Source of the DNA: Thermoanaerobaculia bacterium
Lineage (GTDB): Bacteria; Acidobacteriota; Thermoanaerobaculia; Multivoradales; UBA5704
NCBI GenBank assembly: GCA_044226625.1
Contig: JBGAGQ010000002.1
Location: 96,001-160,000, forward strand
Length of the DNA: 64,000 bases
Direction of reading: 5' to 3'
The position numbers and the translations under genes were made by a program. The notes beneath the pieces are model-generated. The model made no database searches, was not told where the DNA came from, and worked only from the letters and a program-made list of their open reading frames with translations. Below are positions 2,811-64,000 of this stretch, piece by piece (the stretch's first letter is position 1; each line of letters starts with the position of its first letter).

Positions 2811-5800
2811 ATGAAGGTTGTCGTCCTCTGTGTTCTGCTTTTCGTCACTGCGACCCTTGGAGCATCAGGCTTTGCGATACAGGAGCGCCTCGCGCAACAT
2901 CGCAACCTCGGCAAAGCCTTCTACGAAAACCCGACCACCCCATCCGAAGCCGTCACCGAATTCAAAGCCGCCCTCGACCTCGCACCTGGCTCCCCACGCG
3001 AGCGTCTGAACTACGGACTCGCGCTGCTCAAAGCAGGGAAGACCGAGGATGGGATCGCGGAGCTGTTGAAGGTGGAGAAGCAAGCCCCTTCGATTCCGCA
3101 TGCCTGGTTCACCCTGGGCGTGATCTACAAGCGGGACGGGAAGTTCGATCTCGCCGTGGCGCAGCTCGAGCAGATGGCGAAGCTCGTTCCCGACGAGCCG
3201 GTGACGCGGTTCAATTTGGGGGCTCTCTACAAGCTCTCAGGGGAGGGGAATCGGGCGCTCGAACAGTTCGAGTTGGCGGCGCGGCTCGCTCCGGAGCTGG
3301 CGGGGCCGCATTATCAGCTCTACCTCGCGTATCGAAGCGCCGGGCGCGCGGAGGACGCCGAGCGGGAGCTCGCCAGATTCCAGGAGATCCGGGCGAGTCA
3401 GGAGGGGGCGGCGGTACCGGAGGACCTCTCGTGGAGCCGCTATTCGGAGATCCTCGACGACGTGGAACCCGAAGGGGCAGCTCCGGCAACCCTCGAAGCG
3501 GCTTGGAAGACGCAGGAGATCGCGCGGGGGCTTGACCCGACGAGCGCGCGGCTCGTCGTGCTCGATGCCGACGGCGACGGCAAGGCCGACCTGCTCGTCG
3601 CGACGGCGAAGGGGCTTTTGCTCTTTTCGGCGGGAGCCGCTCGGATGGAGCCGAGCGGACTCGAGGCGATCGGAAAGGGCGGGAACGCGGGGGACGACGG
3701 TGTCGGGAATTCCGTCCGCGATGCCGTGCCGGGAGATGTCGACGACGACGGCCGCGCGGATCTGTGCGTGGTCACCGAGCGTGGCGCGGCGCTCTATCGG
3801 AACGCGAACGGCAGGTTCGAGCGGTTTCCGGCGAAGCTCCCTGCCGGCGATTTCCGGACGGCGGTCTGGCTCGACGTCGACCACGACTACGACCTCGACC
3901 TGATTCTCTTGGGGAAGAACGCCGCCTACGTGCGGAACCCGGGTGCCGGCAGCTCCGAGGGGTGGACCGATCGGACGGCCGACTTTCCGTTCGTGCCCGG
4001 TGCGGCCCTCGCCGGGGTGGCGTTCCACGCCGTCTCGGATACGCAGGGGACCGACCTCGCGGTCACCTACTCCGATCGGCCGGGAGTCCTTTACCGCGAC
4101 CGGCTCGGGGGCAAGTACGAGGCCACTTCGTTCGCCGGGCTTTTGGCCGGCACCACCAACGTCGCCGCCGAGGATCTGAACGGCGATGGTTGGATCGACC
4201 TTCGCGCCGACGGCGCCTCGTGGCTCAACCCGGCCGAGAAGGGGACCGAGTGGCTCGCGGCACCTGGAGGGACGGGGCCTGGCCACGTCGCGCCGATCGC
4301 CTTCGTCGATCCGGACAACTCCGGCCGGCGCCTCCTCGTCGCGCCGCCGAGCCCGGGCGCATCGCTCGTGGCGGCGGTAGCGGCCGATTTCGACGGCGAC
4401 GGGAAGATCGATCTCGCCTCGCTCGACGGCGAGGGCGTGCTTCGTCGACACTCGAACGCGACACCTTCGCCCTATCGCTCTCTCTCGGTGAGCCTTTCTG
4501 GCGTCAAGAACCTGAAGCTCGCGGCCGGATCCGAGGTCGAAGTGAAAGCCGGCCGGAGCTACCAGAAACAGACCTACCACGGGGTCCCGCTCGTCTTCGG
4601 CCTCGGCGCACGCGAAAAGGTCGACGCCGTTCGCGTCACGTGGCCGAACGGCCTCATCCAGAACGAAACCGAGCCGAAACTGAACAAGCCCGCGGCGTCG
4701 CTCTCGATCGTCGAGGCGCCCCGTCTCTCGGGGTCGTGCCCGATGATCTTCACCTGGAACGGCTCGCGCTTCGAGTTCGTTTCGGACGTCCTCGGCGTGG
4801 CACCGCTCGGAGCGAGCGCTGGGGACGGCACCTACTTCCCCGTCGACCACGACGAGCACGTGCAGATCCCTCGCGGAGCGCTGGTCGAGGTGGACGGCCG
4901 CTACGAGATCCGGATGACCGAGGAGCTGCGCGAGGTGGCGTTCCTCGATCGCGTGCGGCTGATGGCGGTCGATCATCCGGAGTCGACCGAAATTTTCGTC
5001 AACGACAAATTCCAGGACCCGCCGTTTCCGGACTTCGAGCTCTACGGCATCCGGCGGCGTATCCGACCGATCTCGGCGCGCGACGGCGACGGGCGCGACG
5101 TGCTCGGCAAGGTCCTCGCGCGCGACCGTACGTATCCCGACGCCTTCCCGCGCGATGCCGGGGGGACGGCGCAACGGCATCGGCTCGACCTCGATTTCGG
5201 CGATTTCGGCGAGCGGCCGAAAAACGCCAAGCTCGGCGGGCGCGCGCTCCTCGTCCTGTCCGGTTGGGTCGACTGGGCCGATGGCAGCACGTTCCTCGGC
5301 GCCGCGCAGCGGCCCGGCGGCGGCCTCGAAATGCCGCGTCTCTCGGTTCAAGACGAGGCGGGGAACTGGGTGACCGCGATCCCGAGCATGGGTATCCCGG
5401 CCGGCAAGCCGAAGACGATCGTGGTCGACCTATCCGGCGCGTTCCGCTCCGCCTCGCGCAAGATCCGGATCGAGACGAACCTCTGCGTCTATTGGGACGA
5501 GATCTTCCTCGCCGAAGATTCGCCCGAGCTGCCGAACGCCATCGATTCCGAGCATCTCGCGACGGCGCTCGAGCCCGTGGCAGCGGAGCTGCGCTTCCGC
5601 GGCTTCTCGCGGCCGGTGATCCACCCGGAGCGCAAGCAGCCGGAGAGCTTCGACTACCAGACCTGGATGCCGATTTCGATGTGGAACCCGACGCCGGGTC
5701 TCTACACGCGCTACGGCGACGTCCGGCCGCTGCTCTCGGCGGTCGATGACGGGATGGTCGTGATGGGCTCGGGGGACGAGGTTCGGATGTCTTTCGACGC

Positions 5801-6059
5801 CGCGGCGTTGCCACCGTTGCCCGAGAGCTGGGCGCGGGATTTCCTTCTGGAAGTCGACGGCTGGGCGAAAGACGCCGACGCGAACACCGCCTATGGACAG
5901 AGCGTCGAGCCGCTGCCGTTCCACGCGATGAGCCGCTACCCGTATCCCGAAAGCGAGCGCTATCCGAGCGACCCCGAGCACGAACGCTACCGCCGGACGT
6001 ACAATGTGAGGCCCGCGCTACGCTTGATCGTCCCGCTTCGTGAGGAGGTGTCGCCCTGA
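2811..6059 (+). CDS. Secreted TPR + FG-GAP repeat + ASPIC/UnbV-like protein
   Basis: Signal peptide MKVVVLCVLLF (alternative ATG 2784), TPRs, repeated DxDGDGxxDL motifs, FGLG..VRVTWPNG motif, C-terminal GSCP..WNG domain. Confidence 0.85.
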   Translation: MKVVVLCVLLFVTATLGASGFAIQERLAQHRNLGKAFYENPTTPSEAVTEFKAALDLAPGSPRERLNYGLALLKAGKTEDGIAELLKVEKQAPSIPHAWFTLGVIYKRDGKFDLAVAQLEQMAKLVPDEPVTRFNLGALYKLSGEGNRALEQFELAARLAPELAGPHYQLYLAYRSAGRAEDAERELARFQEIRASQEGAAVPEDLSWSRYSEILDDVEPEGAAPATLEAAWKTQEIARGLDPTSARLVVLDADGDGKADLLVATAKGLLLFSAGAARMEPSGLEAIGKGGNAGDDGVGNSVRDAVPGDVDDDGRADLCVVTERGAALYRNANGRFERFPAKLPAGDFRTAVWLDVDHDYDLDLILLGKNAAYVRNPGAGSSEGWTDRTADFPFVPGAALAGVAFHAVSDTQGTDLAVTYSDRPGVLYRDRLGGKYEATSFAGLLAGTTNVAAEDLNGDGWIDLRADGASWLNPAEKGTEWLAAPGGTGPGHVAPIAFVDPDNSGRRLLVAPPSPGASLVAAVAADFDGDGKIDLASLDGEGVLRRHSNATPSPYRSLSVSLSGVKNLKLAAGSEVEVKAGRSYQKQTYHGVPLVFGLGAREKVDAVRVTWPNGLIQNETEPKLNKPAASLSIVEAPRLSGSCPMIFTWNGSRFEFVSDVLGVAPLGASAGDGTYFPVDHDEHVQIPRGALVEVDGRYEIRMTEELREVAFLDRVRLMAVDHPESTEIFVNDKFQDPPFPDFELYGIRRRIRPISARDGDGRDVLGKVLARDRTYPDAFPRDAGGTAQRHRLDLDFGDFGERPKNAKLGGRALLVLSGWVDWADGSTFLGAAQRPGGGLEMPRLSVQDEAGNWVTAIPSMGIPAGKPKTIVVDLSGAFRSASRKIRIETNLCVYWDEIFLAEDSPELPNAIDSEHLATALEPVAAELRFRGFSRPVIHPERKQPESFDYQTWMPISMWNPTPGLYTRYGDVRPLLSAVDDGMVVMGSGDEVRMSFDAAALPPLPESWARDFLLEVDGWAKDADANTAYGQSVEPLPFHAMSRYPYPESERYPSDPEHERYRRTYNVRPALRLIVPLREEVSP

Positions 6060-8950
6060 GCCCCGAGGCCCGATCGTCGAGACTTCTTCCCCGCGCCGCC
6101 GCGCTCGTCCTCCTTCTGCTATTGGTCAATACCGCCTACGTCGCGGCGTTCGCCGAGGCGACGATCTTCTACATGGGGAACGCCGCCCTCCACCTGGGGC
6201 TGGGGCTGCTGTTCGTGGGGCTCGGAGCGCTCCTGGTCTGGCGGCGGCCGGCGCTGCGCCGCCCTTTCGCCCCGGCGGTGGTCCTCTTCGTCGCCGCGCT
6301 TCTCTCGGCGCTCTACCTCGTTAAGTTCTACAACCTGCGCGAGAACCGCTGGGCGCTCTGGCTGCACGTCGGCTCTGCGGCGCTCGGCGTGCTGGCGATC
6401 CTTTGGGCGCTCTGCCGTGGGCTGCGCCTCGGAACCGATCGCGAAGCGAGTGCTCCGCTCGTCGGCGGAATCGGCTTCCGCCGGGCGCTCGCCGCGGCGG
6501 CTCTCCTCGCGCTGCTGCTGCCGGCGGGAACGGCGCTCTACCGGCGGTTCCATCCCGATCCGTCGCTCCGGATCGTGAACCCCGAGATCGTACCCGCGCG
6601 GATGGAGGAAGAGGGGGGAGGCCCGCACTCGCCGTTCTTCCCGTCCTCGGCGCGGACGAACGTCGGCGGCATCATCCCGTCGAACTTCTTCATGGATTCG
6701 GCCACCTGCGGACGCTGCCACGTGGACATCTACAAGCAGTGGCAGAGCTCGGCCCATCGCTTCGGCTCGTTCAACAACCAGTTCTACCGGAAGTCGATCG
6801 AGTACATGCAGGACGTGGTCGGGACCAAGCCGAGCAAGTGGTGCGCCGGTTGCCACGATCACGCGGTCTTCTTCAACGGGCGGTTCGATCGGCCGATCAA
6901 GGAGCAGATCGATACCCCCGAGGCGCACGCCGGCCTCGGCTGCATGTCGTGCCACGCGATCGTCCATGTCGGAAGCTCGATGGGGAACGGCGATTTCACG
7001 ATCGAATACCCGCCGCTCCACGAGCTCGCGAGCAGCAAGGACCCGACGATCCGGCGGATCGACAAGTTCCTCACTTATCTCGATCCCGAGCCCCACCGGA
7101 AGACGTTCATGAAGCCGTTCATGCGCCAGGATCAGGCCGAGTTCTGTGCCGCCTGCCACAAGGTGCACCTCGACGTGCCGGTCAACTCGTACCGCTGGAT
7201 GCGCGGCTTCAACGACTACGACAACTGGCAGGCGAGCGGCGTCTCGGGCCAAGGGGCGCGGTCGTTCTACTACCCGCCGGAATCGAAAACGTGCGGCGGC
7301 TGCCACATGCCGCTGGTCGATTCGCACGACCCGGGGAACCGCAACGGCAAAGTCCACTCGCATCGCTTCCCTGCGGCGAACACGGCCCTGCCGTACGTCA
7401 ACCGCGACGCCGAGCAGCTCGACGTGGTCACGAAGTTTCTGCAATCGGGGTTCATCACGGTCGACCTGTTCGCGATCGCCCCGGCCGCCGCGCCCGTCGC
7501 CGGCGAGGGGATGGTGCGCCGAAGTGGCGAGGCACCGCGGGCGATGTCGACGTTCGCGGTGGGGGAAGAGGCGGAGTCCGCGGGCGAGGGGACGATCCGC
7601 GAGCTGACCGATTTCGCGGCGCCGCTCGAATCGGCCGGCGTGCAGCTGGTGCCCGGGTCGACGGTCCGGATCGACGTGGTCGTCCGCACGCGCGGTATCG
7701 GCCATTTCTTCCCCGGTGGCACGGTCGACGCCTTCGACGTCTGGCTGGAGCTCGAAGCGAAGGACGCGACCGGCCGGGTGATCTTCACGAGCGGCGCGGT
7801 CGAGGACGGTGGGCGTGGTCCGGTCGAGAAGGGCGCCCATTTCTATCGCTCGTTCGCGCTCGACGCCGAAGGGAACCCGATCGACAAACGAAATGCCTGG
7901 CAAGCGCGAAGCCTGCTCTATGCGCGGCTGATTCCACCGGGCGCGGCCGACACCGTCCACTTCCGCCTCCACGTGCCGGAGGACGCCAAGGGGCCGATCA
8001 CGCTCACCGCGAAGCTCAATCATCGAAAGTTCTCCCGCTACTACACGGAGTTTTCCTACGCGGGGAAACCGAAGGCCGGGCAGGCGACCCACTTGCTGTC
8101 GGCGCATTTCAACTCGCTCGAGTACTCGTTCGACCCGAAGGACGTGCCGAAGAACGTCTCCGGGCAGATCAAGGGGGCGATCCCTGACCTGCCGATCACC
8201 GAGCTGGCGCGCGACGAGGTGACGCTCCCGCTCGCAGGAGCGGGCTCCGTTCCCCGGTTCGCTGCGAAGCCGCTTCTCGAAGACCGCGAGCGGTGGAACG
8301 ACTGGGGGATCGGCCTGCTGCTCCAGGGGGACTTGAAAGGTGCCGAACGGGCGTTCCGCACGGTGACCGAGGTCGAGCCCGAATATGCCGATGGGTGGGT
8401 GAACGTCGCGCGGGCGCTGATCCGCGAAGGGGAGACCGAAGCGGCGCGGCCGTTCGTCGAGCGCGCCCTCAAGGTGAAGCCGCAGCTCGGACGGGCGCTC
8501 TTCTTCCGCTCGATGATCGAGAAGGCTGCCGGGGATTACACGGCGGCTGAGGCTTCGCTGCGCGCGGTGGCCGATCAATATCCCCGCGACCGCGTGGTGT
8601 TGAACCAGCTCGCCCGCGTCCTCTTCCTCGAGCGGAAGCACGCCGAGGCCTTGCGGGTGCTGGATCGGGTGCGGTCGGTGGATCCGGAGGACGTCCAGAT
8701 GCACTACACGGCGATGCTCGCCGCGCGCGCCCTGGGCGATGGCCCGAGGGCCGAGCGGGAGGCTGCGCTGTTCCGCCGCTTCAAGGCGGAGGAGGCGTCA
8801 CAGGCGATCACCGGCGCGCGGCGGCGCCTTTCGCCCGAGGACAACAACGAGCGGCAGATGATCCACGAGCACGAGAGCGCGCCGTTGCCCGTGCCTCCGC
8901 CGCGGGATACGGCGGCTTCGCCGACCGTCGCGGCCGGGGCGGGAGGGTAG
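6056..8950 (+). CDS. Membrane-anchored multiheme (5 CxxCH) cytochrome c with C-terminal TPRs
   Basis: N-terminal TM helices; CGRCH, CAGCH, CMSCH, CAACH, CGGCH; TPR tail. Start is either CTG 6056 (after SD GAGGAGG) or TTG 6122. Confidence 0.85.
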   Translation: MSPEARSSRLLPRAAALVLLLLLVNTAYVAAFAEATIFYMGNAALHLGLGLLFVGLGALLVWRRPALRRPFAPAVVLFVAALLSALYLVKFYNLRENRWALWLHVGSAALGVLAILWALCRGLRLGTDREASAPLVGGIGFRRALAAAALLALLLPAGTALYRRFHPDPSLRIVNPEIVPARMEEEGGGPHSPFFPSSARTNVGGIIPSNFFMDSATCGRCHVDIYKQWQSSAHRFGSFNNQFYRKSIEYMQDVVGTKPSKWCAGCHDHAVFFNGRFDRPIKEQIDTPEAHAGLGCMSCHAIVHVGSSMGNGDFTIEYPPLHELASSKDPTIRRIDKFLTYLDPEPHRKTFMKPFMRQDQAEFCAACHKVHLDVPVNSYRWMRGFNDYDNWQASGVSGQGARSFYYPPESKTCGGCHMPLVDSHDPGNRNGKVHSHRFPAANTALPYVNRDAEQLDVVTKFLQSGFITVDLFAIAPAAAPVAGEGMVRRSGEAPRAMSTFAVGEEAESAGEGTIRELTDFAAPLESAGVQLVPGSTVRIDVVVRTRGIGHFFPGGTVDAFDVWLELEAKDATGRVIFTSGAVEDGGRGPVEKGAHFYRSFALDAEGNPIDKRNAWQARSLLYARLIPPGAADTVHFRLHVPEDAKGPITLTAKLNHRKFSRYYTEFSYAGKPKAGQATHLLSAHFNSLEYSFDPKDVPKNVSGQIKGAIPDLPITELARDEVTLPLAGAGSVPRFAAKPLLEDRERWNDWGIGLLLQGDLKGAERAFRTVTEVEPEYADGWVNVARALIREGETEAARPFVERALKVKPQLGRALFFRSMIEKAAGDYTAAEASLRAVADQYPRDRVVLNQLARVLFLERKHAEALRVLDRVRSVDPEDVQMHYTAMLAARALGDGPRAEREAALFRRFKAEEASQAITGARRRLSPEDNNERQMIHEHESAPLPVPPPRDTAASPTVAAGAGG

Positions 8951-55449: not shown

Positions 55450-56248
55450 ATGAGCGAGACTCTAGTTCAAATCGGCGGTTCGCTGCGAACCGGGGTGGAA
55501 TCCCGGGGACGGCAAGGTCGGCCAGAGTGGTTGCGCATCCGCTTGGCGGGGCGACGTATGTACCAGGCGCTGCGGATTCTGCGCCGTTACATCGGGACGC
55601 CCGTCTTCGGGCGTGGACGCAGAAGAGCCGGATCACGTCGCCGAGGCGATCGAGGTCATGGGGCTCCGACACTCCGTAATCACCTCCGTCGACCGGGACG
55701 ACCTTCCGGACGGGGGAGCGAGACATTTTGCCGCGGTCATTACGGCGATCCACCGAAGGACGCCCGGTGTGGCGGTAGAGGTTCTTACCCCCGATTTTCG
55801 CGGTGTGCCGGACGCCTTGGACGTCGTGCTCGCCGGCAAGCCGCAAGTCTTTTCGCACAACATGGAGACGGTACCGCGCCTCTACCGTAAGGCGCGTCCG
55901 GGCAGCCGGTACGACCGCTCGCTTGGGCTGCTCGCCGACGCGGCGGACCGGAAAGCCGCGGGGCGCTTCGGGGGATCGATCAAGACCGGCATCATGCTCG
56001 GACTGGGGGAGGATCGAGCCGAGATCGAGGCGACGCTTCGAGACATCCGCTCGGCCGGCGTCGAGGTCATGACTCTCGGCCAATACCTCCAGCCGACTAC
56101 CAAGCACCTGCCGGTCGACCGGTGGGTGACTCCCGAGGAATTTGCCGAGCACCGCCAATTCGCGCTTTCGCTCGGGTTCGGTCACTGCGAATCGGGGCCC
56201 CTGGTTCGGAGCAGCTACCACGCTCACGAGCACGTCGTCGCCGTCTAG
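55450..56248 (+). pseudogene. lipA: Lipoyl synthase with an internal frameshifting deletion near 55549
   Basis: RPEWLRIRLA, then a frame switch to GDVCTRRCGFCAV..ITSVDRDDL..HNMETV..GQYLQP..GPLVRSSYHA; the auxiliary-cluster CxxxxCxxxxxC motif is absent. Confidence 0.88.
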
Positions 56249-56435
56249 ACGTCTCCCGAGAGTCGGTCTCGCCGAGCGCTCAAAACCACGTCCGCCCGGC
56301 GATGTCACGTTCCAAGGGCGGTGCGCACCCAACTAAATGAACTCGCGGTGCGGAGCTTCCTCTCTCCGGTGGGGCCTTCGGGACCCTAGCCGTCTGGGAA
56401 GAGGTGTCGTCTCCGGCGGGTTCCTTGGGGCCGTC

Positions 56436-57398
56436 ATGACGCTTTTACCCATCGAAATCTCTCTTCGAGCTCCACTTCGCCCTCCGGTTCGTCCCTCGTT
56501 GCGCGATGTCGGCGTGCCGACGGATTTTCTCGGTTCGAGCCTCGCGATCCGCCGGCTGGTCGACCACTTGGATCTCGCGAGCCGAGGTCTCGATCCGGTC
56601 TTGATCTGCGGCGAGACCGGTTCGGGAAAGAGCCTTGCGGCGCGCATGCTGTATGAGCTGTGCGGTGCGGATTCCGGTTGGGCCGCGATCTCCGCCGACG
56701 CCTTCGACGAGCGGCTCTGCTCGCGCCTGATGAGCGACCGCCGGGACCTGCCCCCGTCGCTCCTGGCGATCGAGGAGGTGGGCGACCTGTCGGGCGCCGC
56801 GCAACGTCGGTTGCTCCGTCTGCTCTCTTCCCGGGGGCCGCGGGTGATCGCCACGACCAGCCGAGATCTGCATCTCGAGGTACGCCGCGGTCTCTTCCTG
56901 CGCTCCCTCCTCGGCCGCCTGTCGAGCTTCGAGGTCGCCGTGCCGGCCTTGAGGGAGCGGCTGGAGGACCTGCCGGTCTTGGTGGAGCGGATCCTCGTCG
57001 AGCTGTCCACCCGGTATCGCAAAGGGGTTCGGGGGATGAGCGCCGAGGCGATCGACCTACTTCTCGGACACCCCTGGAACGGGAATCTCCGGGAGCTGCG
57101 GCATGAGCTGGCGAGCGCGCTCCTCTTGACGCCCGCCGGAGAGGAGATCCGGCCCTCCGCGCTGTCGCCGGACCTCCACGCCTCGGCGCGCACAGGGCGG
57201 TCGACCTCGAGTCTGCGGCAGCGAGCGCGGGAGATCGAGCGAAGCCTCCTCGCGCGCGTCCTGGACACCAACGGCTGGAATGTCTCGGCCGCGGCGCGAG
57301 AGCTCAAGATCAGCCGAGTGGGGCTCTCGAAGAAACTGCGCGTGCTCGAAATGAAGCGTCCGAAGAGCGCGCCGTCGCTCCCCCTGCGACACGCCTGA
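56436..57398 (+). CDS. Degenerate sigma54-activator-like AAA+ protein with Fis HTH, lacking GAFTGA and a sensor domain
   Basis: GETGSGKS, IEEVGDL, RVIATT, PALRERLED, HPWNGNLREL, WNVSAAARELKISRVGL. Confidence 0.8.
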   Translation: MTLLPIEISLRAPLRPPVRPSLRDVGVPTDFLGSSLAIRRLVDHLDLASRGLDPVLICGETGSGKSLAARMLYELCGADSGWAAISADAFDERLCSRLMSDRRDLPPSLLAIEEVGDLSGAAQRRLLRLLSSRGPRVIATTSRDLHLEVRRGLFLRSLLGRLSSFEVAVPALRERLEDLPVLVERILVELSTRYRKGVRGMSAEAIDLLLGHPWNGNLRELRHELASALLLTPAGEEIRPSALSPDLHASARTGRSTSSLRQRAREIERSLLARVLDTNGWNVSAAARELKISRVGLSKKLRVLEMKRPKSAPSLPLRHA

Positions 57399-57461
57399 GC
57401 GGAATGCGAGAGGCCCCGCCGTAGTCGGCGCGGCCCCAAGGGAATACGGGGTTCCGCATCC

Positions 57462-57490
57462 TAGACAGACCTGCGGCACGATGGTACCCT
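57462..57490 (+). promoter_or_regulatory. Putative promoter of ECF sigma 1
   Basis: TAGACA-17 nt-TACCCT with TGn extended -10. Confidence 0.5.
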
Positions 57491-57521
57491 TCGAATAGCT
57501 CATTCGAGGGTCGCGGCAGCA

Positions 57522-58055
57522 ATGACTTACCTCCAACAACCCGAGCTTCAAGACAGCTTGAACCAGCTCCTGCTCGCGTCGCGGCCACGGCTGGAGCGCG
57601 TCCTTCGGCATTTCGAAATCCCGCCCGAGGACGCCGAGGACATCCTTCAAGACGCGCAGCTGACGCTGCTCTACAAGTGGGAGCAGATCCGTAGCCCGGA
57701 GAGTTGGTTGGTCGGTACTCTCAAGAAAAAGTGCATCATGTATTGGCGCAAGCGCCGGTCGAGCCTCTGCGATGCGGTGGACACCGCCATCCTCGACTTG
57801 GTCGCCACGCCGATCTCTCCGGATCAGGAGAAGGCCGAGCTCAGCTTCGACCTCAACCGGGTGCTGGGCAACCTGTCGGCGCGATGCCGGTCGCTGCTCA
57901 AGCTGCGTTACGGTCTTGGATATGGCCCGAGCGAGGTCGCCGAGCAGATGGGGTACCGGCTTTCGAGCATTCGAAAGGTGACCAACCGATGTCTCGCGGC
58001 GCTCACGCGGCAGCTCGTGGCCGTCGGGTTCAGCCAGGAGCAGACCGATGATTGA
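57522..58055 (+). CDS. ECF-type sigma-70 factor (paralog 1)
   Basis: 177 aa; DAEDILQD, ESWL (region 2); LSARCRSLLKLRY..EVAEQMG (region 4 HTH). Confidence 0.88.
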   Translation: MTYLQQPELQDSLNQLLLASRPRLERVLRHFEIPPEDAEDILQDAQLTLLYKWEQIRSPESWLVGTLKKKCIMYWRKRRSSLCDAVDTAILDLVATPISPDQEKAELSFDLNRVLGNLSARCRSLLKLRYGLGYGPSEVAEQMGYRLSSIRKVTNRCLAALTRQLVAVGFSQEQTDD

Positions 58056-59394
58056 GCGCCACCCTTCGAACGAGCAGCTGGTGAGCTTTGGCCGCGCCAG
58101 GCTCTCGCGCCCTCAGAACCGCGAGGTGGTGCGCCATCTACTGTCCGGTTGTCGCCGCTGTGCCCGCTCTCTTGCGGCCGCATTGCCTCCGGTATTTTCC
58201 GTGGGACGCTCGGAGGTCGCGCCGGCGAATTACGACGGCGCGTTCGACAAGGCGCGCATGGCGTTTCTCGGCGCGCGAGCTGATTTCGAAGTCGAACGAC
58301 GTGAGACTCCGGAGCTCCTGTGTGAGCTCGAGGCGCATCCTTTCGAGCGTCAGCTTCTCCTGCTTACGAACAGCCAGAGATTTTGGACTTGGTCGCTCGC
58401 GTGCGCGCTGCTCGATCGCGCGCAGGACCTCGGGTTCAAGGATCCCGGGCGTAGCCTCGACTTCGCTAAGCTCGGCGTTCGGCTCTCGGAGCACCTGTCC
58501 GTCGGCGCCTATGGTGATGCCCGGGTCGCAGATCTTCGCGCCCGCGCCTGGGGGGTGCTCGCCAATGCTCAGCGGATCGGTTCGGACCTTCGAGCTTCCG
58601 GCCAGAGCTTCCTCCGGGCCGAGCGTTCCCTCAAGAGGGGAACCGGGGATCCCGTCGAGAAGGCGCGTTTACTGCTGTTGAAGGCTTCGCTGTTTGCGGA
58701 CCAGCGCCGTTTTCCCGAAGCGATCAAGACGCTCGATCGTGTCGTCGCGATGGCTCACCGGGTCGAAGACGCGCCGCTGATCGCAAGCGCGGCGGTGAAG
58801 AAGGGAATCGTGCTTGGGACGTCCGGCAGGACGGACGAAGCGATCGAGTGCTTGCGAGAGGGCATCCGCGGGATTGATCCTCGCTCGGATCGGCGGCTTT
58901 TCGTGGCCGCGCACCACAACCTGATCGTATACCTGATCGAAGGGGGGCGGTTGGACGAGGCCGTGGCCCTCCTCGAGGCGACGCGTCCGCTCTACGAGGG
59001 CCTCGGCGATCGCATGAACTTGCTTCGTCTCCGCTGGTTGGAGGCGAAGGTCGCCCAGAATCAGGGTCGACTGACGGAGGCGGAAGCTTTGCTCCGTTCC
59101 GTCGGCGCAGAGCTGGCGGAGCTCGGCCTCGGCTACGACTCTGCTCTGCTCGGATTGGACCTTGCCGGCGTCTACGCGCGCCAAGGGCGAACCGAAGAAA
59201 TGCGTACGCTCGCGGCCGAGATGTTGCCCAGCTTCCAGTCGCGCGAGGTGCATCGCGAGGCGCTCGCCGCGTTGATCGTCTTCCAGAAAGCGGCGAAGAT
59301 GGACCGGGTCACCTTGGGACTGGTGCAGGAGCTTTCTGACTATCTTCGCCAGTGCCGCAAGGATCCCGGGGTCCGCCTCCGCGATTCTCTTTGA
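58048..59394 (+). CDS. Zinc-finger (anti-sigma-like) + TPR protein 1
   Basis: HPS..RHLLSGCRRC N-terminus, TPR-like helices, no TM segment; overlaps sigma 1 by 8 nt. Confidence 0.8.
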   Translation: MIERHPSNEQLVSFGRARLSRPQNREVVRHLLSGCRRCARSLAAALPPVFSVGRSEVAPANYDGAFDKARMAFLGARADFEVERRETPELLCELEAHPFERQLLLLTNSQRFWTWSLACALLDRAQDLGFKDPGRSLDFAKLGVRLSEHLSVGAYGDARVADLRARAWGVLANAQRIGSDLRASGQSFLRAERSLKRGTGDPVEKARLLLLKASLFADQRRFPEAIKTLDRVVAMAHRVEDAPLIASAAVKKGIVLGTSGRTDEAIECLREGIRGIDPRSDRRLFVAAHHNLIVYLIEGGRLDEAVALLEATRPLYEGLGDRMNLLRLRWLEAKVAQNQGRLTEAEALLRSVGAELAELGLGYDSALLGLDLAGVYARQGRTEEMRTLAAEMLPSFQSREVHREALAALIVFQKAAKMDRVTLGLVQELSDYLRQCRKDPGVRLRDSL

Positions 59395-59540
59395 TCGACT
59401 CGTCTCGCCAGTTCTTCTCCAAAGTTCCTTCGCGCACTCCCCGGAGAATCGCGGCGCGCCCTTCCGGCCGGAAGATGCGTGGCGGTCCGACGTACGTTTG
59501 AGACTCTCGGGAATCCCCGGGAGAGGCCCGTCCGATCGCC

Positions 59541-59569
59541 TAGACAAAATGCCCCCCTCCTGATAATGT
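59541..59569 (+). promoter_or_regulatory. Putative promoter of ECF sigma 2
   Basis: TAGACA-17 nt-TAATGT with TGn extended -10. Confidence 0.5.
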
Positions 59570-59598
59570 AACTTTGGTTTACACGCTGTACCTACGCA

Positions 59599-60144
59599 AT
59601 GTCCGGCTCCGAACTCGACTCGCGGTCCGAGGCCGCATTCGAAGAACTCATCGACAAGGTCCGCCCGCGCCTTCGGAAGATTCTCTCCCGCTATCGGATT
59701 CCTCCTCAGGACGCCGATGACCTTATCCAGGAAACCTTCCTGATACTGGTCACCAAATGGGGTAGCGTCTCCAACCCCGAGGCCTGGGTTCTTGCAACTC
59801 TTGCCAACCGTTGCATCATCTACTGGCGCAAGAGTCGGTCTCGCCTTTGGGATCTGGTCGATGGAGTGGTATTGGAGCTCCTGGCAGACGTCCAGCCCTC
59901 CTTACAAGAGGGCATCGACCTGCGCGTCGACCTCCAGGCGCTGGTGGCCAATCTGCCCGACCGGTGCCGAAATCTGCTGCGCCTACGCTACCAGCTCGGA
60001 TGCTCGGCCGCCGAGACCGCCGAACGCACCGGGTATTGTCGCTCGAGCATCCGGAAGGTCACCCGACGTTGTATTTCTGCGCTCGCTTCGCAACTTCTGG
60101 CGCAGCCGCTGGCAGCAACCGTCGAGCTCGGCTCCGAGACCTGA
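59599..60144 (+). CDS. ECF-type sigma-70 factor (paralog 2)
   Basis: RPRL..YRIPPQDADDLIQE, NPEAW, LPDRCRNLLRLRY, SSIRKVTRRC. Confidence 0.87.
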   Translation: MSGSELDSRSEAAFEELIDKVRPRLRKILSRYRIPPQDADDLIQETFLILVTKWGSVSNPEAWVLATLANRCIIYWRKSRSRLWDLVDGVVLELLADVQPSLQEGIDLRVDLQALVANLPDRCRNLLRLRYQLGCSAAETAERTGYCRSSIRKVTRRCISALASQLLAQPLAATVELGSET

Positions 60145-60268
60145 AGAATCGGTCTTTTCGGACCTTTTCGTCACGATTCGCGGCGAAATGTCCCTCTCGA
60201 GCCCCCGAACGGTAACCTAGGTCTTAGAGATCTTTGCGGGCTAATCCGCATTTCCCAAGGAGAACACC

Positions 60269-60562
60269 ATGTCCCGACGTATCGCCCCCTTCGTCACCGC
60301 GCTGGCCCTCGTCTCGACCCTCGCCGTCCCTGCGGTCTCCCAGGCCCAGGCCGCCGCGGGTGTGCGCGAAATCGCCATCGAGTCGTCCTGGCTTTCCGGC
60401 TTGTGGAACCAGCTGATCGACCGCTTGGCGCCTATCGGTGACGCTCTGGGACTGGGTGGCAGGAGACTTGCTTCGCAAACCGGCATCGAACCGATCGCTC
60501 CGAAATCGGAGGCTGGGATCCAAATCGATGCAGACGGAAGGACGGCTCCAGCGAGCAACTAG
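60269..60562 (+). CDS. Small secreted protein / putative signalling pro-peptide (97 aa)
   Basis: Strong AAGGAG SD, Sec signal (MSRR + hydrophobic + AQA), Trp helix WLSGLWNQL, C-terminal GIQIDADG. Confidence 0.75.
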   Translation: MSRRIAPFVTALALVSTLAVPAVSQAQAAAGVREIAIESSWLSGLWNQLIDRLAPIGDALGLGGRRLASQTGIEPIAPKSEAGIQIDADGRTAPASN

Positions 60563-60626
60563 CCGAAAGGCTGGCCTGCCAGCGCCGCGTCGCGCGCGGT
60601 TACGCTCCAAATCCCGGTGTCTCGCC

Positions 60627-60659
60627 TGGACTTTGGCACGGGAAAGGTGTACCTTTCCC
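60627..60659 (+). promoter_or_regulatory. Putative promoter of ECF sigma 3 with overlapping palindromic operator
   Basis: TGGACT-17 nt-TACCTT; GGGAAAGGT-gt-ACCTTTCCC at 60640-60659. Confidence 0.55.
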
Positions 60660-60688
60660 CAGAGTCAGAAATTTGGTGAGCGCTGTCG

Positions 60689-61216
60689 ATGATCGCACTC
60701 GACGAAATTTTTATCGAAACGTCGCTCGAAACGTTTCTCGAAGAAGCACGTCCACGCCTCAAGGTTATCTTCTGTCGTTATCGGATCCCTCCGGACGACA
60801 CCGAAGACATCGTGCAACAGGCCCTCTTGGCCTTGCTCTATCGCCTGGGCTCCGTCCGAGATCCCCAGGCCTGGCTTATCGGTACCGTCAAGAACAAATG
60901 TCTCCTGTATTGGCGCGACCAACGAAGAAGGCTGTATGACTCGGTCGATTCCACCGTGCTCGAATGGATCGCGCAGCCCGCGTCGCCCGAGCAGGAGGAC
61001 CATGACCTCCGGCGGGATCTCTCGGCCGTGATCGAGACCTTGCCCCGACGCTGCCGCGCCCTGCTGAGCTTGCGTTATGGGCTTGGATATGAGCCCCCCG
61101 AAGTCGCTGCACGTTTGGGTTACCGGACCTCGAGCATGAGCAAAATCACGACGCGCTGTCTTTCGCTGCTTACCCGTCAATTACTCATCGCTGGTTTGGG
61201 TCGGAAAAAAATATGA
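60689..61216 (+). CDS. ECF-type sigma-70 factor (paralog 3)
   Basis: RPRL..YRIPPDDTEDIVQQ, DPQAWL, LPRRCRALLSLRYGLGY, SSMSKITTRC. Confidence 0.88.
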   Translation: MIALDEIFIETSLETFLEEARPRLKVIFCRYRIPPDDTEDIVQQALLALLYRLGSVRDPQAWLIGTVKNKCLLYWRDQRRRLYDSVDSTVLEWIAQPASPEQEDHDLRRDLSAVIETLPRRCRALLSLRYGLGYEPPEVAARLGYRTSSMSKITTRCLSLLTRQLLIAGLGRKKI

Positions 61217-62601
61217 ACGAGATTACCGATCATCCGAGCCGAGAGGTTCTGGAGCGGTTCCTCTTGGCGCAGCTTCCAGCCTCCGAAAGCCGTCGTGTTT
61301 TACGGCATCTATTGTCCGGCTGCCTGGAGTGCCAGCGCGAGGCGGGCGCCGCGTGGAAAAACACGCAGCCGAGCACGACCTCGCTGCCCATCGACCCAGC
61401 TCTCGACGCCCGATACGACGAGGTTCTCGATCGAGTCTTTCGGCGGGTGGAGCGGGTGGAGCAGCAGCTTGCCCGCGAGCGAGCGCAAGCGCAGGAGCTG
61501 CTCGCGCAGCTCGAGCCGCATCCCATTCAGCGGCAGCGACTCATGCTGCGCAACAGCTCTAAGTTCAAGAATCGTGCGCTTTGCGAACAGATGATCAAGG
61601 CCAGCCACGACCGAGGCTTCAAGGATCCGGCTCGCTCTCTGGAGCTGGCCGAGCTGGCGATCGAGATTTCGCAGTCGGTGCCCGACGACGCGAAGGACGC
61701 CGACCCCAGGCGCCACCTGGAGAGCCGTGCTTGGGCGCAGGCGGGCAACGCGAACCGAATTCTCGGCAATCACGATGTCGCCGAGCGCTGTTTCGTCAGC
61801 GCCGAAGATCTGCTCGCCGATTCCGCCGGCATTGGCATCTTCGACGAGGCGCGCCTGTTCAGCCTCAAAGCTTCTCTACGCCGCGATCAGCGGAGGTGGA
61901 GCGAGTCGCTGGAGTTGTTCGATCGGTCGATCTCGATCTATCAGAGCCTGGGCCAAAGGCACTTGCTCGGGCGAACCTATGCTCAGAAGGCGACCGTCAT
62001 CTCCGAGGTCGGGGATTTCGTCTCCTCGATCTCCATCTTGCGCCGCGCGCTGGAGCTGCTCGATCCCAAGGAGGAACCGCGCATCTTCCTCGCCGCCCGC
62101 CACAACCTGATCTGGGCGCTCTGCGAAAGCGAGCGCTACCGGGAAGCCTTCGCCTTGCTTTTCCATACCCGCCCGTTCTACCTCCAGGCGGGGGATCGGA
62201 TGAACCTGCTAAGGATGAGGTGGCTCGAGGGGCAGGTTGCCGCGGGCCTTGGCCGTCTGGAGCAAGCCGAGGTAGCGTTTCTCGAAGTTCGCCGCTCGTT
62301 CGCCGAGCTCTCGCTCGACTATGACGGCGCGCTCGTTTCGCTCGATCTAGCCGGCCTGCTCGCGCGCCAGGGCCGCGCGGCCGAAGTCCAGCACATCGCC
62401 GAGGAAGTGCTCACCATCTTCGTCGCTCGGTCGATCCACCGCGAGGCGATCGCGGCCATCGCCTTGCTCAAGCTAGCTGCCGACCAGCAGCGCGCCGAGG
62501 TGGCCTTGGTACGGCAGGTGTCCTCGTTCCTGCGCCGCTCTCGGAGCAACCCCGACTTGGTCTTCGAGGTCGGCGACGAAGCGACGTCCGAGGCGAGCTA
62601 G
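61213..62601 (+). CDS. Zinc-finger (anti-sigma-like) + TPR protein 2
   Basis: HPSREVL..RHLLSGCLEC; shares GFKDP, HNLI, GDRMNLLRxRWLE, LDLAG and HREA motifs with TPR protein 1; ATGA overlap with sigma 3. Confidence 0.8.
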   Translation: MNEITDHPSREVLERFLLAQLPASESRRVLRHLLSGCLECQREAGAAWKNTQPSTTSLPIDPALDARYDEVLDRVFRRVERVEQQLARERAQAQELLAQLEPHPIQRQRLMLRNSSKFKNRALCEQMIKASHDRGFKDPARSLELAELAIEISQSVPDDAKDADPRRHLESRAWAQAGNANRILGNHDVAERCFVSAEDLLADSAGIGIFDEARLFSLKASLRRDQRRWSESLELFDRSISIYQSLGQRHLLGRTYAQKATVISEVGDFVSSISILRRALELLDPKEEPRIFLAARHNLIWALCESERYREAFALLFHTRPFYLQAGDRMNLLRMRWLEGQVAAGLGRLEQAEVAFLEVRRSFAELSLDYDGALVSLDLAGLLARQGRAAEVQHIAEEVLTIFVARSIHREAIAAIALLKLAADQQRAEVALVRQVSSFLRRSRSNPDLVFEVGDEATSEAS

Positions 62602-62682
62602 GACCAGATAGGACCCCGCCCCCCGCGGACATCGCACGGGGGCAAAGCCTGAAGCAGGGTAATCCGGCGTTCGAGCGCCGGA

Positions 62683-64000
62683 TTACGTGCGGACTCCCAG
62701 AAACAGATAGCTCGACAGCAGCGAGAAGAGAGCGCTAGGACTCCAGACCGCGGCGGCAGGCGGGATGGCACCGGCTTCGCCGAGCGTCTTGAAAAAGGCG
62801 AAGACGGCAAGGAAGACGATCCCCAGAACGATGGAGACACCGATCCCATAGAGAGTTCCCTGGCGGCCGATCCGAAAGGCGAAAGGCAGAGCCACGACCG
62901 CCATGATCAAGGAGATCACCGGGAAGGCAAGCTTGTTGTAGAGCTGAACTTCGAGCTCGGGTACGGCTTGGCCACTCCCTTTAAGCTCCCGGATGTACGA
63001 TCGCAGCTCGCCGTAGGTCATCTGCTCGGGCGGCCGAATCTCGGCGTCGAAGTACTCGGGTGTCTCGGGAAAGGCGACGGTCCGCTTGCCCCGGAAGCGG
63101 GTGTAGTTTGCAACGCTGCCGTGCGAGAGGATGCGCGCCCACCCGTTTTCGAAGACCCAATTACCATGGCCGGCGTAGGTCGCGTTCTCGGCATAGAGGC
63201 GCCGGACCATCTCGTGATTCGAGTCGAAGTCGAAGACGTGCAACCGCTGGAGGGTGTGGCTTCGCGGGTCGTAGTAGGAGTAGTTGTAAATGAAGCGCCC
63301 GTGACCGAACAGCCACTGGCGGTCGGCGCGCCGATAGGTTCGCACGGTCTCCTTGCCGTTGATCTTGTCGCGCATTTGGGCCACGCGCTCGTTGGAGGCC
63401 GGAAGGACCTGGGTCTCCAAATAGGCACAAAACGAGGAGATGACCAGCGCCGAGACGATGACCGGCAGGGCCAGCCGATAGAGGCTCACCCCGAGCGCCT
63501 TGGCGGCCGTGACTTCGTTGGTGCGCGACAGGAGGCTGAAGGTCATCAACGTCGTCACCAGGATCACGACGGGTGCGATGTCGTAGAAGATCTGGAGCGA
63601 CATGTACTTGTAGTAGGAGAAGACCAGGCCCTTGGCGATCTTGTTCTTCAGAATCTCGTCGATCCTCTCGGTCAGGTCGGCGATCACGTAGAGCGAGATG
63701 CCGGACGCGGTCACGATCGAGAGCACGATCAGGAAGATTCGGACCACATACCGATCGATCAGGTTTGGGAAGAGCAGGCGAAGGCGGGGAATGCGTAGGA
63801 CCACGCCGCGATCGTCGACGCTCCTCGCGGTGGCCACGCCCGCCCGCCCGCCAAGGGCTTCCTCGGGAAGCAGGGGAGCGGCCGACACCGGGCGCTTTCG
63901 AAGCGAGCGGATACGCAGGATTCCCCCCCAGACGTCACGCCGGATCCAACGATCGAAACGAGAGAACAGCAGGCTCTTGTCGCGGTTCCTGCGGATGAGG
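62683..64000 (-). CDS. lptG: LPS export permease LptG domain, probably the C-terminal half of a fused LptF/LptG; 5' part lies beyond the window
   Basis: LIDRYVVR, RTNEVTAAKALGVSLYRL, KLAFP, AAAVWSP; the frame stays open to the window end. Confidence 0.85.
   Translation of the reverse strand, partial: LIRRNRDKSLLFSRFDRWIRRDVWGGILRIRSLRKRPVSAAPLLPEEALGGRAGVATARSVDDRGVVLRIPRLRLLFPNLIDRYVVRIFLIVLSIVTASGISLYVIADLTERIDEILKNKIAKGLVFSYYKYMSLQIFYDIAPVVILVTTLMTFSLLSRTNEVTAAKALGVSLYRLALPVIVSALVISSFCAYLETQVLPASNERVAQMRDKINGKETVRTYRRADRQWLFGHGRFIYNYSYYDPRSHTLQRLHVFDFDSNHEMVRRLYAENATYAGHGNWVFENGWARILSHGSVANYTRFRGKRTVAFPETPEYFDAEIRPPEQMTYGELRSYIRELKGSGQAVPELEVQLYNKLAFPVISLIMAVVALPFAFRIGRQGTLYGIGVSIVLGIVFLAVFAFFKTLGEAGAIPPAAAVWSPSALFSLLSSYLFLGVRT

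Follow-up and report, generated by a model that had tools for sequence, protein, structure and literature searches.

Gene content and conservation of the locus

The 64,000-nt stretch analysed here (the window) covers positions 96,001 to 160,000 of contig JBGAGQ010000002.1 (assembly GCA_044226625.1) from a Thermoanaerobaculia bacterium, a soil-type Acidobacterium that is uncultured and represented by a metagenome-assembled genome. At 56337-62601 its + strand carries seven open reading frames (ORFs) in the order AAA+/Fis-type regulator, sigma1, TPR1, sigma2, orf97, sigma3 and TPR2, in which three extracytoplasmic function (ECF) sigma factor genes are combined with two genes for soluble tetratricopeptide repeat (TPR) proteins and with orf97, encoding a predicted exported small-peptide precursor. 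All seven ORFs were found at the places given by an initial annotation of the same DNA, which had read the cluster as a candidate peptide-sensing system acting through sigma factors.

The sigma factors sigma1 (57522..58055, 177 aa), sigma2 (59599..60144, 181 aa) and sigma3 (60689..61216, 175 aa) all match Pfam Sigma70_r2 plus r4 or r4_2 within a length of 175-181 aa (for sigma1, Sigma70_r2 at 1.1e-10 plus r4), and score 61.2, 69.7 and 63.0 bits, respectively, against TIGR02937 of NCBIfam, whose cutoff is 42.9. Having regions 2 and 4 only and exceeding the family threshold, they are ECF (group 4) sigma-70 factors. The sigmas share 43-47% identity among themselves, and TPR1 (58048..59394, 448 aa) and TPR2 (61213..62601, 462 aa) share 40%. 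TPR1 overlaps sigma1 by 8 nt and TPR2 overlaps sigma3 by 4 nt (ATGA), as the initial annotation had noted, and sigma2 has no adjoining TPR gene. The overlaps are kept among relatives: 94 of 116 genes for TPR proteins with a zinc-binding anti-sigma (ZAS)-like head lie 3′ of a sigma gene, and 81 of these 94 overlap it by 4 or 8 nt.

By scanning one genome per species, 266 relatives were found and 76 loci were kept. Their typical order is sigma-TPR-sigma-(gap)-sigma-TPR(-TPR), with a variant, sigma-sigma-(gap)-sigma-TPR-TPR, that is devoid of the first TPR gene; within these orders, 52 of the 76 loci hold a pair of sigma genes uninterrupted by any TPR gene. The flanks are housekeeping genes, MetK upstream and LptF/LptG downstream. 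Because it is kept in dozens of other genomes, the gene arrangement is far from chance, and by this comparison the cluster is a stable chromosomal locus, old and conserved; the module would have been inherited vertically within one order of Thermoanaerobaculia. At a strict threshold the TPR family was found in 5 of 301 sampled Acidobacteriota genomes, all of the window's own order. Hundreds of relatives of the TPR protein stand in databases, none with an annotation beyond TPR or hypothetical protein and the named ones all from Thermoanaerobaculia, and a search with the N-terminal module alone returned 2,364 cluster representatives (E <= 0.001) from a library of 1.84 billion proteins, with full-length matches mostly of 440-500 aa. 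In a quick IQ-TREE phylogeny, TPR1, TPR2 and a motif-less TPR3 formed well-supported separate orthologous clades. TPR3, which has no His/Cys motif, lies 3′ of TPR2 in most distant relatives (e.g., L041:11509-12855 and L049:11468-12808) and is absent from the window; a search for a small ORF of its own gave 30 candidates and two matches, both being the cluster's own small ORF.

An undescribed small-protein family in the sigma2-sigma3 gap

orf97 (60269..60562, + strand, 97 aa) lies in the gap between sigma2 and sigma3, and a homologous small ORF on the + strand fills this gap in all 44 loci in which it measures at least 354 nt. Together with orf97 these ORFs make an alignment of 45 members of 27-105 aa. 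The eight loci with a gap of at most 202 nt have no ORF in the gap, and a related ORF lies upstream of sigma1 instead in two short-gap loci, L045 and L065, and in L081. Family members open with an N-terminus that is basic and hydrophobic and closes in an AxA-like site; a variable linker then leads to an amphipathic segment rich in W/F-x-x-L and to a terminal motif G-[VI]-x-[IL]-D-[PG]-x-G, near G-[VI]-[RQ]-I-D-[PG]-[DN]-G, that usually stands at the very C-terminus. The amphipathic helix and the terminal motif are the conserved parts, and the motif is present in two to three tandem copies in at least 14 of the 45 members. An AAGGAG ribosome-binding site is conserved 5′ of the ATG, and the ratio of non-synonymous to synonymous substitution rates (dN/dS) is 0.26-0.70 in 12 close pairs; by these signs the small ORF is a real gene.

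In orf97 itself, a hydropathy heuristic found a hydrophobic stretch (2.06) at residues 5-23, with basic residues before it and AxA-like sites after it, which is consistent with the earlier description of a 97-aa secreted ORF; its amphipathic segment reads SSWLSGLWNQLIDRL. By the same heuristic a signal-peptide-like pattern is present in 42 of the 45 family members and lacking in three. At L058:5344-5427, L061:8505-8597 and L089:5784-5867 the small ORF is only 27-30 aa long and has no signal peptide, which fits a cytoplasmic site of action. These short forms keep the hydrophobic or amphipathic segment and a G-V-R-I-D-P-D-G end, and the promoter-like motif and ribosome-binding site upstream of them are intact.

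A profile search returned 85 small-ORF homologues; a few bear inconsistent JGI labels, the rest are 'hypothetical', and no Pfam domain is present in any of them. No match to orf97 was found in Pfam or NCBIfam, seven further small ORFs gave chance-level matches only in the same two databases, and a typical small ORF met only unnamed clusters with scores < 0.8 in the protein atlas. By these searches the small-protein family is undescribed, whatever mechanism holds. Two other roles for orf97 were considered and rejected: that of a membrane-anchored anti-sigma for sigma2, because the approximately 4 residues before the hydrophobic segment leave no room for an anti-sigma domain, and that of a precursor of a ribosomally synthesized and post-translationally modified peptide, as the neighbourhood, flanked by MetK and LptF/LptG, has no conserved modifying enzymes.

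Linkage of the small ORF to TPR genes

The most telling result is that, as far as gene neighbourhoods tell, the small ORF is linked to the TPR gene rather than to the sigma gene. In other genomes, 17 of 19 orphan TPR genes, which have no sigma gene nearby, are immediately preceded by a small-ORF homologue, and the peptides of these loci end in ...GGAMDPNG-like motifs. The window's genome holds 24 TPR paralogues, 18 of them with the His/Cys motif and three adjoining a sigma gene. A heuristic that requires a hydrophobic 14-mer followed by [ILVMT]-D-[PGSAD]-[DNHSE]-G picked out 51 of this genome's 73,163 six-frame segments, yet such segments lie within 900 nt of 15 of the 24 TPR paralogues. After removal of one false positive (a MauE-like membrane protein) and with orf97 counted once for both window TPRs, at least 13 peptide/TPR cassettes remain in the genome. 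A heuristic-positive segment also lies within 1.5 kb of a TPR gene in 58 of the 76 related loci. Each cassette has its own flanking residues around the common D-P-x-G core, and such paralogue-specific motif variants are as expected of cognate peptide/TPR pairs. The initial annotation had held that a want of conserved linkage between small secreted ORFs and these TPR genes would speak against it; the linkage is kept across genomes and paralogues. The neighbourhood survey that it proposed upheld the co-occurrence of small ORF and TPR; a sigma gene is lacking beside most (21 of 24) of the genome's own TPR paralogues.

The peptide gene is mostly upstream of the TPR gene on the same strand; in the cassette of contig C83 it is downstream on the same strand, which is the rap-phr order. 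Convergent peptide genes adjoin the TPR paralogues C13:10600-11667(-), C46:19419-20072(-) and C57:2-559(+), and the peptides there have a Cys-flanked motif, G-C-x-L-D-P-x-G-x-C, repeated two to three times, which suggests disulfide-closed loops and a distinct sub-family. The three TPRs have no His/Cys motif and fall into one clade together with C5. The neighbourhood annotation of the orphan paralogues is incomplete, because the crude gene caller, based on the GC content of third codon positions (GC3), missed or mis-called some genes.

Some orphan neighbourhoods hold other regulators. A divergent gene of the XRE type, with a helix-turn-helix (HTH) domain of family HTH_3, lies at three orphan TPRs, L019:6594-7142(+), L022:7341-7703(+) and L027:7016-7426(+), on contigs C11, C76 and C124 of the window's own genome, and recalls the HTH fused to the TPRs in PlcR- and NprR-type receptors. 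At C20:50334-52323(-), a sigma-like ORF of 326 aa and a distant TPR relative of 338 aa without His/Cys overlap by 8 nt, a pair that may be a degenerate or divergent form of the sigma-TPR pair.

An anti-sigma-like head on the TPR proteins

TPR1 and TPR2 both begin with H-x24-H-x4-C-x2-C (H..(x24)..HLLSGCxxC), giving zinc-ligand candidates at H5, H30, C35 and C38 in TPR1 and at H7, H32, C37 and C40 in TPR2. All four residues are invariant in 30 of 30 divergent N-termini. The canonical ZAS motif is H-x3-C-x2-C with a further upstream His or Cys ligand, and the helix pattern and ligand positions of the head match the layout of anti-sigma domains (ASDs). Modelled alone, the N-terminal 105 residues of TPR1 (predicted local distance difference test, pLDDT, 86) take the form of a conserved three-helix module. 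In a Foldseek search with this head, ranks 1-10, 14, 16 and 22 were all anti-sigma domains, at E >= 0.85, with ChrR (25-30% identity), DdvA-Nt, RslA, RsiW, RskA and MucA among them, and anti-sigma domains topped two independent fold searches. The commonest sub-threshold Pfam match of the 30 N-terminal fragments was zf-HC2 (7 of 30, best E 0.051). In favour of the ZAS-like head of the initial annotation are the invariant ligand candidates and the top fold matches, weak in score; where it departs from the canonical domain is taken up below.

No transmembrane-like segment was found in TPR1 or TPR2, the maximum 19-aa Kyte-Doolittle means being 1.09 and 1.31, respectively. These values agree with the earlier statement that the TPR proteins have no transmembrane helix and support their being soluble.

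The TPR superhelix as candidate sensor

Beyond the head, TPR_12 of Pfam matched TPR1 at 5.6e-16 and TPR2 at 4.1e-13. The model of full TPR1 (pLDDT 87) shows three short helices (8-45) and, past a disordered linker, a long helix (63-95) followed by a TPR superhelix, and the TPR region of approximately 350 residues is strongly conserved. The closest folds to the TPR1 model are peptide-binding TPRs, namely LGN/Pins, MalT domain III, several Rap receptors and KLC1; RapJ-CSF (4gyo) gave template modelling (TM) scores of 0.53/0.64, and the phi3T Rap with its pheromone was also matched. The best match of the TPR profile among Protein Data Bank (PDB) sequences was kinesin light chain, at 1.4e-6. The fold comparison with RRNPP structures that had been suggested earlier came out in part: Rap receptors are among the matches, with a likeness that is generic and unaccompanied by detectable sequence homology.

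The complex of TPR2 (alignment of 28) with orf97 residues 27-97 (alignment of 29) was predicted in three runs beside three controls. It scored 0.59 (runs 0.52, 0.65 and 0.59) versus 0.01 for the best control, with at least 66% of contacts shared by the runs and a partner pLDDT of at least 46. Among 80 solved complexes 58 attain the score mark, as do 2 among 110 mismatched pairs; at scores <= 0.60 only seven of the 80 and both mismatches attain it. The prediction lends weak support to a TPR2-orf97 complex, the pair covered here of those whose modelling the initial annotation had recommended. Since the cassette linkage makes a TPR-peptide pairing a likely guess beforehand, the score is a modest increment. 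TPR2 is the most likely partner of orf97.

Promoter-like motifs of the sigma and peptide genes

An alignment of 45 upstream regions showed a conserved sigma70-like TGGACA-N17-TGnTAnnnT upstream of the sigma genes. In the window, the + strand candidates are 57462..57490 for sigma1 (TAGACA-N17-TACCCT with TG before the −10 element, a consensus match only), 59541..59569 for sigma2 (TAGACA-N17, TGATAATGT) and approximately 60627..60655 for sigma3 (TGGACT-N17-TACCTT with TG). A generic sigma70 promoter scan gave 0 sites, and these candidates rest on the cross-genome alignment.

The small ORF is preceded by a different motif from that of the three sigma genes. It is bipartite, TGTC(C/T)-N15/16-(G)CGG(N)AAC, lies at 60189..60216 (+) for orf97, where it is a candidate ECF-dependent promoter, and recurs, 85-131 nt from the ATG, upstream of all 45 small ORFs. 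When the genome was scanned with a position weight matrix (PWM), the orf97 site ranked first of 1,002 candidates, and four sites in the top 40 lie just upstream of the orphan TPR genes C4, C46, C83 and C10. A loose regular expression for the motif had given 68 genome matches, mostly by chance, and was set aside for the PWM ranking combined with a position upstream of TPR genes. The next-best genome sites, C81:93796(-) with 22.9 bits and C13:53441(+) with 22.1 bits, may mark further regulon members; the ORF after the C13 site has a start resembling the anti-sigma-like head, without the His/Cys ligands.

The leader of orf97 (60217-60268), from the promoter-like motif to the ribosome-binding site, and 45 aligned leaders have a conserved c-T-T-n-G-A-G followed by a GC-rich hairpin whose sequence is clade-specific. 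Rfam gave no match at E <= 1 within 56000-63000.

Comparison with known systems

The window TPR proteins resemble ZAS class I anti-sigmas (ChrR, RslA, RsiW, RsrA) in their N-terminal three-helix module with His/His/Cys/Cys at matching positions and in their genes, which lie directly 3′ of, and overlap, an ECF sigma gene. ChrR, moreover, is soluble and has a C-terminal sensor domain. Unlike that class, they have H-x4-C-x2-C, do not reach the zf-HC2 threshold, carry a TPR superhelix of approximately 350 aa as the putative sensor, and belong to a family present in 24 copies in one genome, mostly without a sigma neighbour.

A second likeness is to the RRNPP(A) cassettes Rap-Phr, NprR-NprX, PlcR-PapR and AimR-AimP, in which a small exported propeptide gene lies beside a cytoplasmic TPR gene and paralogous cassettes are many. 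Rap-Phr cassettes have multiplied in Bacillus, as the peptide/TPR cassette has, to at least 13 copies, in the window's genome. As in RRNPP precursors, the conserved signal stands at the C-terminus of the propeptide and its motif is tandemly duplicated in some members (cf. PMC11343458). The RRNPP signature comprises a 10-100-aa propeptide with Sec export, a 250-500-aa TPR receptor, neighbouring genes and receptor homology (PMC10075063). orf97, with 97 aa, and the receptors, with 448 and 462 aa and TPRs, fall within these sizes. Propeptide and receptor genes adjoin each other directly in most cassettes of the window's genome and in 17 of the 19 orphan loci; in the window itself, sigma3 separates orf97 from TPR2. 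The differences from RRNPP systems are that receptor homology is not detectable (E 0.12-0.28), that the output domain is ZAS-like and not an HTH or phosphatase, that the peptides of the family all share a D-P-x-G core, and that the host is a diderm of the Acidobacteriota in which export, processing and import of the peptides are putative.

The nearest described anti-sigma with both parts is DdvA (PMC11506125), which couples a zinc anti-sigma domain to a large TPR region and pairs with an ECF sigma. It is transmembrane, with a periplasmic, protease-like TPR-CHAT part, whereas the window TPRs have no transmembrane segment and no CHAT and have a linked peptide gene. In ECF42 a TPR domain likewise controls an ECF sigma in the cytoplasm (PMC7826278, PMC8999054); there, the TPR is fused to the sigma and no anti-sigma takes part, while the window TPR is a separate protein with an anti-sigma-like head and a peptide gene. 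Casas-Pastor et al. (PMC7826278) count no more than 10 ECF groups with recognisable soluble anti-sigmas and regard the existence of others as probable. RRNPP-type cytoplasmic peptide sensing is described, in the literature surveyed, for Firmicutes and their mobile elements (PMC10075063, PMC9765709). In our literature searches no description of an ECF/zinc-head TPR/peptide layout was found, although published ECF group tables may list this sigma group, together with a TPR neighbour. Nothing was found on RRNPP in Acidobacteria, and the matches for RRNPP combined with anti-sigma were unrelated; the matches listed for anti-sigma, TPR and signalling peptides were nearly all Gram-positive RRNPP-type systems, none with this layout. 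To our knowledge, where soluble anti-sigmas control ECF sigmas the known inputs are redox or light stress and not peptides. The module would join two known kinds of system, a peptide/TPR cassette and an ECF anti-sigma, and the interpretation given by the initial annotation is partly supported.

A working model and its alternatives

We propose that the TPR proteins are soluble anti-sigmas coupled to a cognate exported peptide in an RRNPP-like logic, a reading that we hold with a confidence close to even, its binding and re-import steps being conjectural. The three paralogous ECF sigmas would each be transcribed from a housekeeping-type promoter, and sigma1 and sigma3 would be translationally coupled to TPR1 and TPR2. 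The ZAS-like three-helix head, presumably with zinc bound, would hold the adjacent sigma, and sensing would fall to the C-terminal TPR superhelix. orf97 would be the exported propeptide of a new family, transcribed from an ECF-type promoter of its own; the peptide, or a processed fragment that ends in or contains the D-P-x-G motif, would bind the neighbouring TPR sensor, TPR2, and alter the head's hold on the sigma, probably in the direction of release. The freed sigma would transcribe the peptide gene and some orphan TPR genes, and with the peptide gene sigma-dependent a feedback loop with quorum-sensing-like logic would arise. The ligand could be either the re-imported extracellular peptide, in which case this would be true quorum sensing, or the unexported precursor. 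For the 21 paralogues without a sigma, candidate partners are sigma2, itself without a TPR partner, the AAA+/Fis genes that recur beside cassettes, and the three divergent XRE-type HTH genes. A bolder form of the proposal, to which we give somewhat less credence, is that this is the first peptide-pheromone receptor family outside Firmicutes and the first acting via sigmas, in which a re-imported processed 'x-I-D-P-x-G' peptide is sensed and at least a dozen 'pherotype' cassettes per genome feed a few ECF sigmas in diderm Thermoanaerobaculia. The initial annotation's cytoplasmic TPR anti-sigmas with a peptide ligand are favoured by the solubility, the head, the coupling to sigma and the small-ORF linkage, and only weakly by the predicted peptide complex.

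Several observations weigh against the proposal. Its binding steps are all inferred. An exported peptide and a cytoplasmic receptor would require re-import over two membranes, and a search of the genome yielded only one binding protein of the OppA family. The head spacing of H-x4-C-x2-C, in the window as in most relatives, exceeds the canonical ZAS spacing by one residue, zf-HC2 gave no match to whole TPR1 or TPR2 at E <= 0.1 in Pfam, and the fold matches of the head to anti-sigma domains are statistically weak. RapF, Rap105 and NprR were reached only at E 0.12-0.28 when the TPR profile was compared with PDB sequences, and the modelled likeness to Rap is of generic TPR grade. The complex score lies in a band where a pass is wrong more often than it is right if the guess was not already a likely one, and the prediction reports no interface. 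orf97 has just one intact motif copy (AGIQIDADG), two others having decayed, and L044, L067, L071, L072, L074 and L099 keep sigmas and TPRs with no small ORF detected in the locus. The 21 of 24 paralogues of the window's genome without an adjoining sigma gene would, if they are anti-sigmas, have to act on partners encoded elsewhere. The bipartite motif, taken from its position and conservation as a probable ECF-type promoter, is tied to no particular sigma. Two metatranscriptome runs of one study contain contigs that match the cluster at 95-99% in places (within sigma1, TPR1, the orf97 region and sigma3, and at the 5′ end of TPR2), which speak for presence in RNA libraries only, as starts and strands are not shown and DNA carry-over is possible; one of them, 60061-60266, begins upstream of the proposed orf97 promoter.

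Some of these points are also at home in a reading with a rather low chance of being right, in which the TPRs are anti-sigmas that sense something else and the peptide is merely an output of the regulon, such as a secreted or periplasmic effector, a surface or matrix peptide or a bacteriocin-like product, so that linkage reflects co-regulation. The peptide gene has its own ECF-type promoter-like motif and an export signal, direct sensing by a cytoplasmic TPR is topologically awkward, and the six syntenic loci without a small ORF keep their sigmas and TPRs. What such a reading does not account for is that the small ORF tracks TPRs even where no sigma is near, both at orphan loci (17 of 19) and within the genome itself (at least 13 cassettes), with paralogue-specific motifs; three loci, moreover, keep the peptide without a signal peptide, and the complex score of 0.59 against 0.01 for controls argues weakly in the same direction. 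FlgM and ExsC/ExsE exemplify a partner-switching logic coupled to secretion, and by analogy the TPR could bind the unexported precursor in a chaperone-like manner and report its export or accumulation rather than cell density, a possibility that we rate lower still. Here the cytoplasmic receptor would meet a ligand made in the cytoplasm, the conserved amphipathic helix is of the kind bound by chaperone-type TPRs, and the variants without a signal peptide (L058, L061 and L089) would act wholly intracellularly; the complex prediction, made on the mature region, is blind to whether binding comes before or after export. Against this, the tandem short terminal motif (at least 14 of 45) is typical of processed pheromone precursors (PMC11343458) and not of chaperone substrates. 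Sec substrates are also normally exported fast, and there is no dedicated secretion system nearby, the flanks being MetK and LptF/LptG.

The remaining two alternatives concern the head. Zinc anti-sigma domains can themselves sense redox state, thiols or zinc, as in RsrA and ChrR, and it is conceivable, though improbable, that the head is the sensor, the TPR a mere scaffold or means of oligomerisation and the small ORF unrelated to signal perception. This would agree with the invariant His/Cys ligands, with ChrR as the best fold match and with the statement in PMC11506125 that oxidants commonly disrupt complexes of zinc anti-sigma domain (ZASD) and sigma; but it leaves unexplained the genome-wide pairing of small ORF and TPR, which includes the His/Cys-less C13, C46 and C57, as well as the strong conservation of the approximately 350 TPR residues. 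We regard as very improbable that the TPRs are no anti-sigmas at all, the head being a generic zinc ribbon or helical cap, the adjoining sigma one of several output contexts, and the real partners other regulators of the AAA+/Fis or XRE-type HTH kind. The 21 of 24 paralogues without an adjoining sigma gene, the three orphans with a divergent HTH_3 gene, a further one with a short AAA+/Fis gene, the loci L079 and L080, which consist of AAA+/Fis, small ORF and TPR with no sigma, and the sub-threshold zf-HC2 match all point this way. They are countered by the 81 of 94 sigma-adjacent TPR genes that overlap the sigma stop codon, by the anti-sigma domains at the top of two independent fold searches, and by a helix pattern and ligand positions that follow the ASD layout.

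If our proposal of a peptide-responsive TPR anti-sigma holds, it would bring peptide signalling to the Acidobacteriota, a soil phylum that is abundant and for the most part uncultured, give ECF signalling a new kind of input, and offer a directly testable system of short synthetic peptides, two small proteins and one promoter. New under any mechanism is an undescribed small-protein family (85 homologues, none with a useful name) that is strictly paired with a TPR family of at least 2,364 cluster representatives.

Other features of the cluster

A terminator-like hairpin with a T-run lies at 60151..60174 (+), directly after the sigma2 stop codon, as a pattern match only. TPR2 is directly followed by a minus-strand ORF (62683-63888) whose counterpart in L033 is LptF/LptG.

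The first gene of the cluster encodes the AAA+/Fis-type regulator (56337..57398, +, 353 aa), which matches Sigma54_activ_2 (1.2e-19), AAA_lid_14 (1.9e-17) and HTH_8 (2e-10) in Pfam. Its start is either 56337 or 56436; the latter, given in the initial annotation, is an internal ATG that would yield a 320-aa protein. A Walker A motif (GETGSGKS) is present, and because a GAFTGA-like loop is missing from its AAA+ domain the regulator is no working sigma54 activator; against NCBIfam equivalogs all its scores are far under the cutoffs. The earlier inclusion of this gene in the cluster is right for the window and for the closest relatives (L033-L038, L040), the only ones in which it precedes the cluster. 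A second short AAA+/Fis regulator of the Sigma54_activ_2 type stands beside another small-ORF/TPR cassette of the same genome (C83:19273-22002, locus L013), and in L079 and L080 (approximately 5240-8395) an AAA+/Fis gene lies directly 5′ of a small-ORF/TPR pair without a sigma. Regulators of this kind may be recurrent partners of the small-ORF/TPR cassettes.

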